Below are positions 17,029 to 21,414 of a stretch of 64,000 nt of DNA, piece by piece (position 1 is the stretch's first letter; each line of letters starts with the position of its first letter). The stretch spans positions 96,001-160,000 of the forward strand of contig JAYFMW010000026.1 of assembly GCA_042408215.1 (NCBI GenBank), in the 5' to 3' direction. Source of the stretch: Microcoleus sp. (GTDB lineage Bacteria > Cyanobacteriota > Cyanobacteriia > Cyanobacteriales > Microcoleaceae). The position numbers and the translations under genes were made by a program. Below the pieces are notes generated by a model. That model was not told the DNA's origin and searched no databases. It worked only from the letters and a program-made list of their open reading frames with translations.

Positions 17029-18066
17029 TTACTCATCTTCAGCATAGATAAACCGATACAATTCACTAGGATCTGGCTCGGCGCTTTTCTCAGCAAAATC
17101 CACCGCATCATCAATTACTGCTTCAATCTTTTTGTCGATCGCCTTTAATTCTTCAGCAGTCGCCAAATTGCGATCGATCAAATCAGCAGCCAACTTCTTA
17201 ATCGGATCGCGAGGGAACCAAAATTCCTTCTCTTCCTTAGAACGCAACTCATCAGGATCGGCCAAAGAATGCCCCCTAAAACGATAAGTCAACGCCTCAA
17301 TCACCGTCGGTCCCTCACCAGCCCGCGCCCGCGCCACAGCTTCTTTAGCTACTTCTCGCACCGCCAAAACATCCATCCCATCAACCTCAACCCCAGCCAT
17401 ACCAAAAGCATGAGCCTTCTTGTAAATCAATGGGTCAGAAGTAGCACGTTCATGGGACATCCCGATCGCCCATTTGTTGTTTTCCACCACATAAAGAATC
17501 GGCAACTTCCACAAAGCCGCCATATTCAAACACTCAAAAAACTGACCGTTATTCGCAGCACCATCGCCAAAAAAACAAGCAGTCACACCATCGGAGCCCT
17601 CATCTCCCAAAGCTTCACGGCGATACTTAGATTGAAAAGCCGCCCCCGTAGCCACAGGAATCCCCTCAGCCACAAAAGCATAACCTCCCAACAGTCGATG
17701 TTCCGCCGAAAACATATGCATCGAACCGCCACGGCCCTTCGAGCAACCTGTCTCTTTCCCGAACAACTCCGCCATCACTTCCCGCGCCGGCACTCCGGCG
17801 CTCAAAGCGTGTACGTGGTCGCGATAGGTGCTGCTAACATAGTCCGTGTCATCCCGGCGCATCGATCGAATCACCCCAGTAGAAACAGCCTCCTGGCCGT
17901 TGTACAAGTGAACAAAACCGAACATTTTGCCCCGGTAATACATCTCGGCGCACTTGTCCTCAAAAAAGCGCCCCAAAACCATATCTTCGTAAAGCATCAA
18001 ACCTTCATCACGAGAAATACTGACGCTTGTTGCGTCAAAAACTGGCAAAGTCCGTTCCTGAACCAT
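17029..18066 (-). CDS. pdhA: Pyruvate dehydrogenase E1 alpha subunit
   Basis: [26 protein letters not shown] motif GDGA...ENN and [12 protein letters not shown]. Confidence 0.97.
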
Positions 18067-18102
18067 AAATCTTTAATACCCGATCGGCTTCCTAGACATC
18101 AT

Positions 18103-18568
18103 AAAAAAGTTCGGTAAGTGGGAAACTCAGAGTCTTTAGACCTGAGAGGGAAACGACGCGGGTGGTTTTAACCACCGTGAATCTTTTTTTTCATCACCGC
18201 CTTGGGATTGCTTAGCTTGGGGTACTTTTGTAATGCACTTTCAACGGGACACTTCGGCTACGCTCAGTGCATCGCAATTACCGTTTCAAGCTTCACAACC
18301 CGCGATCGCATGATGTTTGCCCTTGTGAGGCCTCCCTTTCGGGGTAAAGTTCGCTTCGTCAATGCGATCTGGGCTTGTTAGGTTGGCAACACTGTAAAGC
18401 GTGACTTTAGAACTGTTTAATTGACAACGACAGAGCAAGGAACTAGCGTCGCATCAAGCGGGTGTCGTGACCCAAATAACGGAGTTTTTTCAAACTGAGA
18501 CTGGTCAATATAGCTTGGTTTGAGCATGGCTCTTACAAGCTCAGTGGCTTTAGCCCTGAGTTATTGAC
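18103..18568 (-). mobile_element. Non-autonomous IscB-type IS200/IS605 element (iscB deleted)
   Basis: Matching subterminal hairpins on the minus strand, CTCAGGGCTAAAGCCACTGAG and CTCAGGTCTAAAGACTCTGAG (covarying pair). Starts GTCAA; ATGA follows at the far end (18099-18102). Confidence 0.78.
18331..18568 (-). ncRNA. HEARO / IscB omega-RNA scaffold
   Basis: The minus strand reads GTCAATA..hairpin..TATTGACCAG..CTCCGTT..ACACC..GATGC..GCTAGTT..GCTCTGTCG..TAAACAG..CAGTG..ACAAGC..CATTGACGAAGCGAACTTTACCCCGAAAGGGAGG, the motif order I recall for HEARO RNAs. Confidence 0.78.
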
Positions 18569-18588
18569 TATTTAAACGCAGATGAGAC

Positions 18589-18887
18589 TTGACACTCCCC
18601 GGTCTAAAGACACGGGGATGCTTAAGGACAAACTTTGGGGGATGAATCCACCCAAATCTTGATGCTTAAAGGGTTTGTCAATAACCCACTACCCACTCGC
18701 CCATTGCTGAGTCTATGGCTACTTGTGGTAGGCATTTGCTGGTATAGACCTGCGTCTGTGTATCCATCCCACATTTTTATGGTAACAGAATGTGGTTTGT
18801 GTCTTGCATAAAGAGGGCTGGCTGGATAAATCCTGCAACGCCCTTTCATCCCTGGACTAAAGTCACAGGGTTTTCAGGGTATTCTTT
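18589..18887 (-). mobile_element. Non-autonomous TnpB-type IS200/IS605 element with omega-RNA end
   Basis: Covarying hairpins at 18597-18617 and 18850-18870. The minus strand ends CCCCGTGTCTTTAGACCGGGGAGTGTCAA and TTAT precedes the left end. Internal remnant RVGSGLLTNPLSIKIW resembles TnpB C-termini. Confidence 0.75.
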
Positions 18888-19089
18888 ATAAGCGCAGCAG
18901 AAAATGGTCGAACATTTTCAAAGCAGGTCACAAATCTTTGTTAAAATCAGCTTGAATAGGCGATTTCACCAAGACTCGGACAACCAAATCTCGTGTCAAG
19001 TCGGTTAAGTTGTCCATAATGCTTTTGTTAAAAACCAACCTTAGTTAAGATAGGCTAATTCAGTTGCTAGCGCTTTGGGGAAGTGGACA

Positions 19090-21413
19090 GTGTTAATTCC
19101 ACTAGATTATTACCGGATTTTGGGTCTACCGATTCAAGCTACTGCCGAACAGTTGCATCAGGCTCATCGCGATCGCACTTTACAGCTTCCACGCAGGGAG
19201 TATTCCGAAGTTGCGATCGTCGCCCGCAAACAACTGCTCGATGAAGCCTGCGCCGTTCTGTCAGACTCAGACGGGCGCAAAGCTTACGATGCCAGTTTTT
19301 TAGCCAAAACTTACGATCGCGAGTCAGAAGCCGGAAGTTCAGCCCGACCCCTGTCTAGGTCAAAAATCCTTGACTCAGGTACCGGCACAGTTTTGCAAGA
19401 CTCAGAAGAAACCTCGGAGCCAGAATCCAGGGCTTTAGACGCCACTCCCGACCCCCACACTCCAAGTATAGAAATCGATGACAACCAATTCGTAGGAGCC
19501 CTGCTCATACTGCAAGAACTGGGGGAATACGAAATCGTACAGAAGCTGGGTCGCCCGTATCTCAACAATGGCAGCATCGCGATCGCCGAAGGTCGTTTCG
19601 GCGACAAAGAACTCGTGCGGCCCGACATAGTTTTAACCGTAGCCCTAGCCTACCTAGAACTCGGTCGCGAACAATGGCAGCAAGGTCAATACGACTCAGC
19701 CACCAAATCATTAGAAGCAGGTCAAGAACTACTGCTGCGCGAAAGCCTATTTCCAAGTGTGAGGGGTGAAATGCAAGCCGACATATACAAACTCCGTCCG
19801 TACAACATTTTAGAGTTACTGTCCCTCCCCGAAGAAAAAGTCGCCCAGCGTCGCCGTGGACTGCAAATCCTGCGAGAAATGCTCCAAGAACGGGGCGGCA
19901 TAGACGGCTCAGGGGACGATCGATCGGGCTTGGGAATAGAAGACTTCCTGCGCTTCGTCCAGCAACTACGCAAGCACCTAACCAGCAGCGAGCAGCAGAC
20001 CCTATTTGAAGCCGAAGCCGGCCGCCCCTCCGCAGTCGCCACCTACCTCTCGGTCTACACCCTATTAGCCCAAGGATTTGCAGCCAGACAGCCCTCCATG
20101 ATCCGCCGCGCCAAGCTGATGTTAATGCAGTTGGGCCGCCGCCAAGACGTTCACCTCGAAAAAGCCGTGTGTTCCCTGCTGCTCGGCCAGACAGAAGAAG
20201 CCAGCAGAGCCCTCGAACTCAGTTCCGAAAAAGAACCCCTCGCCTTCATTCGCGAAAATTCCCAAGATTCTCCCGATTTGTTGCCCGGGCTGTGCTTGTA
20301 CACCGAACACTGGCTACAAGAAGAAGTGTTTCCCCACTTCCGCGACTTGGTAAACCAATCCGTCTCCTTAAAAGATTACTTTGCCGACCCCAAAGTACAA
20401 GCCTACCTAGAAGCATTACCCTCAGACGCAGAAACCGCCAACGAATGGGTAGTCGTGCAGCCCCGTGACCGCAAGCCCCAACCACGACTGCAATCGAGCA
20501 GCACACTCCAACCCGCCGCCACAGCTTCACCACGAGCAGGTACTGTCACCTTGACCCCGGTAGCAGCAGGCGCCGGAACCCCACCTGGACGCCCCAAATA
20601 CGAGGGGAAGGCTGCCACGCACCTCCCCCCCACAGCCACCAAGAGCGCCACAGCAGCCACGACCTTGCGCCCGTCGCCAACGACCTCAAAAGAGCGCAGA
20701 CGCCCAAATTCATCCCGCCGCTGGGCGACAGGCGCTCTTTCAACGGGTGCCCTGGTCGATCGGGCCCGCACAGCCAGAACACAAATTTCAGCCAAACTCA
20801 AGTCCATGCCTCGCAATAGGCTGGCTCTGTTCGTAGTCGCAGGTGTTCTGGGCTTCTTAATCCTGTGGTGGATACTCAGTCTTTTGGCCAACGCCCTACA
20901 AGCCGTGTCAGGCCCATCCAGCCCATCCCCGCAAGGAGAGCCAACCCAAATCAGCCCGGAAGCCCCACCCAGAGAAATCCCCGCACCCGCAGCCACTCCC
21001 CCAGAGCCTCCCGCCCCAGCCCCAGCTTCTGGCCCAATCACAGAGGAAGTAGGCGGGCAAATAATTAAAAGCTGGCTGGCCGCCAAAGCAGCAGCCTTGG
21101 GCCCCAACCACGCTGTCGATGAATTAAAGCAAGTGCTGACAGAACCGGCTCTATCTCGCTGGCAATTGATGGCAGAAGCTCAACAGCGAAACAACGCCCA
21201 CCAGCAATACGAACACACCCTCGAAGTTAAAGAAGTTCGCCCCAATCCAACCAACCCCGATCGGGCAGAAGTAGAAGCCCAAGTAACAGAAAAAGCCGAT
21301 GTCTTCGAGGGCACGAGCCAAACTACTTCCCGCAACGAAAACCTGCGGGTGCGCTACGAATTAATCCGCCAAGATGGACAGTGGCGAATTATGGATTGGC
21401 AAGTTATGAAGTA

Positions 21414-21414
<1 letters not shown>
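19090..21414 (+). CDS. ftn2: Cell division protein Ftn2/ARC6 (J-like domain, transmembrane helix, IMS domain)
   Basis: IPLDYYRILG start (GTG), LPRREYS, DLLPGLC...WL..EVFPHFRD, a TM helix and C-terminal LRVRYELIRQDGQWRI. Confidence 0.93.

Follow-up and report, generated by a model that had tools for sequence, protein, structure and literature searches.

We examined the region upstream of a pdhA-like gene in Microcoleus sp. (GCA_042408215.1, contig JAYFMW010000026.1, positions 96,001–160,000 of the forward strand, a 64,000-nt stretch that we call the window; the genome is labelled G000). Reading the minus strand across 17700–19300, we found, directly from the letters and in this order, TTAT, a 299-nt element (element 1), 20 nt, a 466-nt element (element 2) and ATGA (Table 1). 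The pdhA-like ATG lies at 18066, 33 nt downstream of this ATGA, and a divergent division gene marks the other edge of the intergenic region. A first-pass annotation had described the locus as a TnpB-type and an IscB-type omega-RNA element arranged around one common guide, and its layout was confirmed to the base. We likewise found no nuclease gene inside 18099–18891, where the open reading frames (ORFs) overlapping the two elements encode only 50–75 aa, in agreement with its statement that neither element holds an intact nuclease gene.

Each element has a pair of subterminal hairpins that can be read directly from the sequence, at 18870–18850 (left end) and 18617–18597 (right end) in element 1, and at 18560–18540 and 18146–18126 in element 2. 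These pairs had been described as covarying, a claim that stood in part: the hairpins are readable in both elements, and covariation appears, by eye only, in the 3′ hairpin of element 2 copies (GTC/GAC versus GGC/GCC). For element 1, 121 distinct right ends aligned poorly, over 300 columns, and the fold of that alignment, with three pairs called, was uninformative. The hairpin loops of element 2, GTCTAAAGAC, are the reverse complement of those of element 1, GTCTTTAGAC, and this complementarity fits a placement of the two elements on opposite transposase strands, in keeping with the published location of HEARO at a transposon's right end and with the published opposition in strand between ISC elements and their TnpB relatives. 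The two right ends therefore face each other, and two right ends facing across 20 nt unavoidably make those 20 nt the guide for both RNAs. The shared guide of the earlier annotation is therefore real as geometry: given where each system is known to take its guide, these 20 nt would serve as 3′ guide of the TnpB-type scaffold and as 5′ guide of the IscB-type scaffold. An off-target search found this stretch to be unique in the genome, with four mismatches at the next-best sites.

Table 1. Features of the locus and of related junctions (window coordinates unless a contig is named)
Feature	Position	Strand	Remarks
TTAT	18891-18888	-	Target and target-adjacent motif (TAM) for element 1, on the 5′ side of the left end; precedes 30/30 copies; kept in the empty site of G008
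Element 1, 299 nt, protein-less TnpB-type IS200/IS605 derivative (palindrome-associated transposable element, PATE, or miniature inverted-repeat transposable element, MITE)	18887-18589	-	Ends GGGGAGTGTCAA, GTGTCAA terminus
20-nt ancestral leader stretch between the elements, GTCTCATCTGCGTTTAAATA	18588-18569	-	Contiguous with TTAT and ATGA in G008
Element 2, 466 nt	18568-18103	-	Opens GTCAATA
HEARO/IscB omega-RNA scaffold, forming the 5′ portion of element 2 and, on the transposase strand, the right end of the transposon	18568-18344	-	Rfam RF02033
Remainder of element 2, without an IscB ORF	18343-18103	-	3′ subterminal hairpin and conserved end CCCACTTACCGAACTTTTTT; 3′ end common to 45 copies
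ATGA	18102-18099	-	Target and TAM for element 2, on its 3′ side when read along the HEARO strand; also present in the empty G008 allele
pdhA-like gene (E1 dehydrogenase alpha)	17029-18066	-	Pfam E1_dh, 2.7e-86; its leader took both insertions
ARC6/Ftn2-like division gene, divergent, at the edge of the intergenic region	19075-21414	+	Pfam ARC6, Arm_PDR, ARC6-like_IMS, DnaJ
Junction loci in G000	window; C1:90967/90990; C5:595816/595844; C8:83915/83951		

Element 1 belongs to an abundant family. BLAST recovered 30 full-length copies in the genome, 14 of them at at least 96% identity and 16 at 74–77%, and every copy is preceded by TTAT, the conserved flanking target, and ends in GTGTCAA. The 14 closest copies point to a recent burst, as judged from their identity. 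Positions 1–68 and 161–299 of the element correspond to the two termini of elements ~1.5 kb long whose product is a 405-aa TnpB (OrfB_IS605 and a Cas12f1-like TNB domain), and its 3′ part is homologous to these from ~17 nt before the end of tnpB to the right end. These shared ends support the assignment, already made in the first-pass annotation, of element 1 as a non-autonomous TnpB-type (OMEGA-type) member of the IS200/IS605 family. The proteins that it lacks are encoded elsewhere in the genome, with 30 TnpB matches at at least 86% identity (24 without stops) and 20 matches to Y1 TnpA. Rfam returned no match to element 1 at E ≤ 10, and the four other matches of that search lie far below their cut-offs, none of them inside the element; the putative omega-RNA scaffold is accordingly assigned by positional homology rather than by a model match. 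The single-sequence fold of element 1 has z = -3.4.

Element 2, by contrast with element 1, has an Rfam match, so that the covariance-model check proposed for both elements succeeded for one of them: its 5′ part scores 114.1 bits over the full HEARO model (1–211), for which the gathering score is 83. The same covariance model has 70 matches across the genome, 64 of them above the cut-off, and the 70 nt upstream of HEARO, which form the guide side, vary among the 69 copies compared. Copies of the 3′-terminal 88 nt of element 2 were found at 45 sites, and at 42 of these 3′ ends ATGA follows within a few bases and then gives way to unrelated sequence, which bears out ATGA as the target. A HEARO start could be paired with such a 3′ end in 30 of 69 cases, delimiting 25 elements of 348–579 nt and five of 1.5–1.7 kb. 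The long relatives encode a 423-aa protein with RRXRR (Pfam, 3e-72) and HNH domains, which identify it as IscB. The HEARO of element 2 does not lie directly upstream of any iscB ORF; uninterrupted IscB frames occur only elsewhere in the genome: a protein search with the 423-aa query gave 28 matches, of which 18 cover at least residues 20–421 without stops. Uninterrupted tnpB, iscB and tnpA frames outside the locus are thus all present, as had been anticipated; the closest uninterrupted ones are at C17:348719–349933 for TnpB and at C8:37060–38328 for IscB. Element 2 also has the 5′-GTCA terminus of ISC-type transposons, is inserted exactly upstream of ATGA and lacks a target-site duplication, the empty site of the relative G008 joining TTTAAATA to ATGATG. 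Sequence comparison therefore supports element 2 as a non-autonomous IscB-type (OMEGA-type) element of the IS200/IS605 family, again as first annotated.

Both families lie close to gene starts. Among 137 TnpB-type right ends in the genome, 26 are followed within 60 nt by an ORF of at least 100 aa on the same strand, with a cluster 20–47 nt upstream of ORF starts (18/137). For the IscB-type family, 28 of the 45 element 2-type ends adjoin an ATG that opens an ORF of at least 60 aa, compared with 20% of random ATGA sites (n = 3000). Ends at apparent start codons include those at C5:596343, C8:84300 and C1:91451. Because an IscB-type mini-element in this position lies directly before the start codon, the gene is parted from its leader and ribosome-binding site, and the 3′ end of the element, ACCGAGCTTTTTT, becomes its new upstream sequence.

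The empty site was found in G008, the closest relative searched, whose flanks are 98–99% identical to those of the window. There, the locus reads CTGCTGCGCTTAT-GTCTCATCTGCGTTTAAATA-ATGATGTCTAGG, with the upstream edge GCGCTTAT, neither element and no duplication. The empty allele is exactly TTAT-GTCTCATCTGCGTTTAAATA-ATGA, letter for letter what had been predicted, and this exact empty site fixes all four element boundaries. TTAT is present at the orthologous site in none of ten other genus members inspected, and ATGA is kept only in G014. As judged from these alignments, it was in the G000/G008 lineage alone that the site became open to insertion by both families, and the two insertions postdate the split between these genomes. 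The pdhA leader around the insertion site (18040–18110 and 18888–18930, minus strand; TTTTCTGCTGCG...GTCTAGGAAGCCGATCGGGTATTAA) shows good conservation among 11 members of the genus, and in G000 and G008 it holds a short ATG-started frame of nine codons. This leader could be regulatory; an insert of 785 nt now interrupts it.

The arrangement at pdhA is not unique in this genome. A TnpB-type right end (GGGAGTRTCAA) lies upstream of the HEARO 5′ end, on the same strand, at 4 of 69 HEARO copies, with spacers of 20, 22, 27 and 35 nt. These four junctions are independent events: their spacers and flanks differ, the element 2 copy at C1 is 68% identical to that of the window, and relatives have empty orthologous sites for all four loci. 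In G008, the C1 locus consists of element 1 and the spacer joined directly to ATGA, without element 2, and three other relatives lack both elements and read TTAT-22 nt-ATGA. At C8, G014 and G020 have the right end and spacer without element 2. We also considered a composite element moving as one unit, which is ruled out by the differing spacers and outer flanks, by the divergence of the C1 copy and by the presence of element 1 alone at C1 in G008.

Several junction loci have further peculiarities. The C8 spacer (C8:83916–83950) is 35 nt in G000 versus ~55 nt in G008 (C235, locus L041, ~146–200) and in G020, the ~20 nt that abutted the HEARO 5′ end, in guide position, having been deleted in G000. 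The TnpB-type end at C5 sits in a 731-nt block (C5:595085–595816; L025 781–1511) that is absent from G020, G009 and G012; because this block follows CTAT rather than TTAT and holds a second right-end-like sequence, it is a nest of several mini-elements. At C7:188813–188858, a reverse-oriented TnpB-type right end precedes a HEARO start by 45 nt, and here the IscB-type element may be nested in a TnpB-type element. As to a general repeat hot-spot, repeats were found in 28 of 68 regions upstream of HEARO; among 400 control regions, which lie upstream of genes, 157 have them. The two do not differ, and this measure does not discriminate.

We searched 60 other genomes of the genus for a right end, 10–60 nt of any sequence and a HEARO start, a pattern that covers one right-end motif of one TnpB family and one HEARO start. 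It gave seven hits, none of which is a HEARO at the Rfam cut-off, so that these genomes hold no verified junction; the reversed control pattern also gave seven hits in the same genomes. Both components are present: HEARO occurs in all 60 genomes (up to 31 candidates were scored in each; first-look candidates number 15–138, versus 94 in G000), and the right-end motif occurs 1121 times, with a mean of 18.7 per genome versus 116 in G000. Correspondingly, the right-end 12-mer GGGGAGTRTCAA has 116 copies in G000 versus a median of 17 in the others. Scaling by the product of both counts, ~1.5 junctions would be expected in the 60 genomes under the null model described below and ~21 if the 14-fold excess of G000 were general, and none was seen. 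Across all 61 genomes, four junctions compare with 1.8 expected (P ~0.11).

Beyond the genus, a collection with one genome per species (~186,000 genomes) gave 51 pattern hits. The HEARO model was applied to 20 of them (11 with cyanobacterial titles and nine others), the remaining 31 all having non-cyanobacterial titles, and one of the 20 is a true junction, in a Microseira record, with a 17-nt spacer. The enrichment that had been looked for is therefore found within this genome, at 4 of 69 HEARO copies, but not in the 60 genus genomes, and in the collection it amounts to this single verified case among the 20 hits tested. Every one of the four G000 junctions, like the Microseira one, is found within a gene leader or at a start codon. 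In Microseira and at C1, C5 and C8, the ATGA that follows element 2 coincides with the apparent start codon of the gene downstream, and the C1 and Microseira spacers contain GGAG. Because all five junctions have such positions, we infer that a host promoter already transcribes the guide in each of them. The titles and abstract openings returned by full-text literature searches describe neither a junction between a TnpB right end and HEARO nor a shared guide.

A simple history could account for this anatomy. Element 1, a TnpB-type PATE or MITE whose right end carries the putative TnpB omega-RNA scaffold, would have been pasted 3′ of TTAT by Y1 TnpA. Element 2, an ISC/IscB-type PATE whose right end is the HEARO scaffold, would have been pasted directly upstream of ATGA on the opposite transposase strand. 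Both insertions into the pdhA leader would be independent and recent. More generally, the IscB-type family would settle before ATGA, often at a start codon, and the TnpB-type family at TTAT some 20–60 nt upstream, both co-oriented with the gene. Since both families seek leaders and are unusually abundant here, they would sometimes share one, and in a shared leader the geometry would force a tail-to-head, right-end-to-right-end junction around a short leader stretch.

Each element would then be retained in the manner of its own family, with production of the RNAs, their loading and cleavage proceeding as published for the two systems. Excision of element 1 would rejoin TTAT to the 20 nt, and TnpB with the element 1 RNA could cut there; excision of element 2 would rejoin the 20 nt to ATGA, where IscB with the guide and HEARO could cut. 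After either cut, recombination with an occupied chromosome copy would restore the lost element, the nucleases being supplied in trans. The doubly occupied allele would be immune, as neither motif lies next to the 20 nt. By sequence logic, loss of either element would indeed expose its motif, as first proposed, leaving TTAT, the 20 nt and GTCA (a target for TnpB only) or TCAA, the 20 nt and ATGA (a target for IscB only). The mutually locking cassette proposed alongside it is not supported: neither element protects the other, each has the ordinary retention logic of its family, and element 1 stands alone at C1 in G008. From its sequence, the locus is best described as two ordinary locks side by side.

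We consider it fairly probable that two independent insertions into one leader produced the locus and that the 20 nt came to be shared incidentally, through a common preference for gene leaders. Chance insertion at a hotspot, which the first-pass annotation had offered as its alternative, thus comes closest to the evidence. Several observations weigh against this explanation. A rough null model, which combines the 26/137 leader fraction with an assumed 6300 genes, predicts 0.28 junctions among 69 HEARO copies, and the four observed exceed this (P ~2e-4, or ~3e-3 without the discovery locus), the null being built on a crude ORF-based gene map as well as on that assumed gene number. Besides the four junctions, just two right-end/HEARO pairs lie less than 150 nt apart in any orientation (at 45 and 137 nt). 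At C1 and C8, the two loci that reveal an order of insertion, the TnpB-type end is the older one. Finally, in RNA libraries from two studies there are contigs that run from HEARO across the spacer and 30 nt into element 1 (18138–18618 in run X1 and 18510–18618 in run X3), with strand, ends and level not readable from them. The excess within this genome is real, but a tendency of both families to settle in leaders can account for it.

These observations also bear on a possible coupling through transcription, which we regard as a tentative alternative. Here, the TnpB-type right end, read outward, would supply the external transcript for HEARO, and mini-elements that land downstream of it would be better retained or driven to all chromosome copies; the resulting scaffold-guide-scaffold precursor could feed either nuclease. 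Such outward read-through would explain both the local excess over 0.28 expected junctions and the precedence of the TnpB-type end at C1 and C8, and the further junction in Microseira and the bridging contigs are in line with it. The available text of a preprint by Meers et al. describes IscB omega-RNA biogenesis as reliant on transcription from outside the element, with an orientation bias relative to upstream genes (doi:10.1101/2023.03.14.532601). A general coupling, however, would predict the ~21 junctions that are missing from the 60 genus genomes, and as all cases lie in host gene leaders, a host promoter could already give the transcript. The contigs, drawn from four runs of three studies whose libraries possibly contain DNA, show no RNA strand, ends or level. 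We draw no conclusion from their cover, which is lacking at 18928–18974 in all four runs, or from their depth, the element 2-specific contigs having 2–5x the word depth of pdhA contigs. A search for sigma-70-like promoters across 17950–19150 found none on the minus strand and one on the plus strand, no more than in shuffled sequences, a weak test that neither supports nor excludes an outward promoter. We are doubtful of the specific proposition that HEARO mini-elements preferentially establish downstream of a co-oriented TnpB-type right end, with one precursor arming two unrelated nucleases against the same 20 bp.

The remaining explanations seem to us much less probable. A selected dual-OMEGA cassette, in which a mutually locking pair is maintained because the shared guide lets both TnpB and IscB attack the empty allele, is improbable, even though that allele exists with both motifs around one protospacer, the genome has four junctions and repair of a cut in the 20 nt from a doubly occupied copy would be expected to copy both elements. 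It lacks reciprocity, since each single loss bares only its own target; the spacers vary (17, 20, 22, 27 and 35 nt, the last having been 55 nt at insertion); the solitary element 1 at C1 in a relative means that the pair is not a unit; the arrangement is absent from 60 genus genomes that hold both families; and expression and cleavage would have to be presumed. Insertion induced by a break is, in our judgment, the least credible of all. TnpB cuts its target ~20 nt from TTAT. A cut at the rejoined site, followed by resection, could bare the opposite strand, with TCAT, as a single-stranded substrate on which a Y1 transposase would paste element 2, and this scheme matches the opposite transposase strand of element 2, the start of its target 17–27 nt from the element 1 right end in four of five cases and the earlier arrival of the TnpB-type end at two loci. 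It is at odds with the 55 nt that separated the two at C8 at the time of insertion and with the lack of an excess in the genus, and it needs several unobserved steps.

If the sharing is incidental, the pdhA leader offers a clean, datable case of two known kinds of mini-transposon with an exact empty site, in which leader-targeting families pile up before genes. If the coupling were true, TnpB-type and IscB-type elements would cooperate, or one selfish element would exploit another, through the transcription of guides. Coupling would further yield a naturally occurring RNA with one guide between two nuclease scaffolds, of relevance to the origins of CRISPR effectors and to compact genome editors.

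Both elements belong to known kinds, and their shared-guide junction is probably a neat but incidental configuration of them. In TnpB-only IS200/IS605 elements of the ISDra2/IS608 type, a tetranucleotide target lies 5′, the right end is TCAA, the scaffold spans the end of tnpB and the right end, and the guide is the 3′ flank. Element 1 would share this geometry without tnpB, keeping ~131–139 nt of the 3′ region as a putative scaffold. In the available text of a report on ISC transposons, those of cyanobacteria, such as ISC1-1_MA of Microcystis aeruginosa, insert at N/ATGA (the slash marking the insertion point), and their TnpB-only counterparts lie on the opposite strand with related targets such as ATAA (Kapitonov, Makarova and Koonin 2016, PMC4810608), which is the reverse complement of TTAT. 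Element 2 resembles these ISC transposons in its 5′ GTCA, its insertion upstream of ATGA without duplication, its subterminal hairpins and its use of a Y1 transposase in trans (PMC4810608); unlike them, it has lost iscB, and its 466 nt comprise no more than the HEARO scaffold and the two ends. The location of 28 of 45 ends of its family at apparent start codons is a point that does not appear in the available part of that report.

The scaffolds themselves also have counterparts. As described in the available text of doi:10.1101/2023.03.14.532601, HEARO lies at the transposon right end and its guide is the variable 5′ flank, so that transcription must start outside the element, and TnpB guide RNAs are encoded at the end of tnpB and in the right-end region. 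Compared with these HEARO/IscB omega-RNAs, element 2 is alike in its full model match and differs in having no adjacent IscB ORF and a 5′ flank bounded at 20 nt by the right end of another element. PATEs, the protein-less derivatives of IS200/IS605 elements named for ISGst1/5 in the same study and also treated in PMC4810608, resemble both elements, which share with them transposon ends only, no coding capacity, many copies and precise, target-specific insertion. Elements 1 and 2 differ from PATEs in retaining, by homology, a guide-RNA scaffold, and in the abutment of two nuclease types on the same 20 nt.

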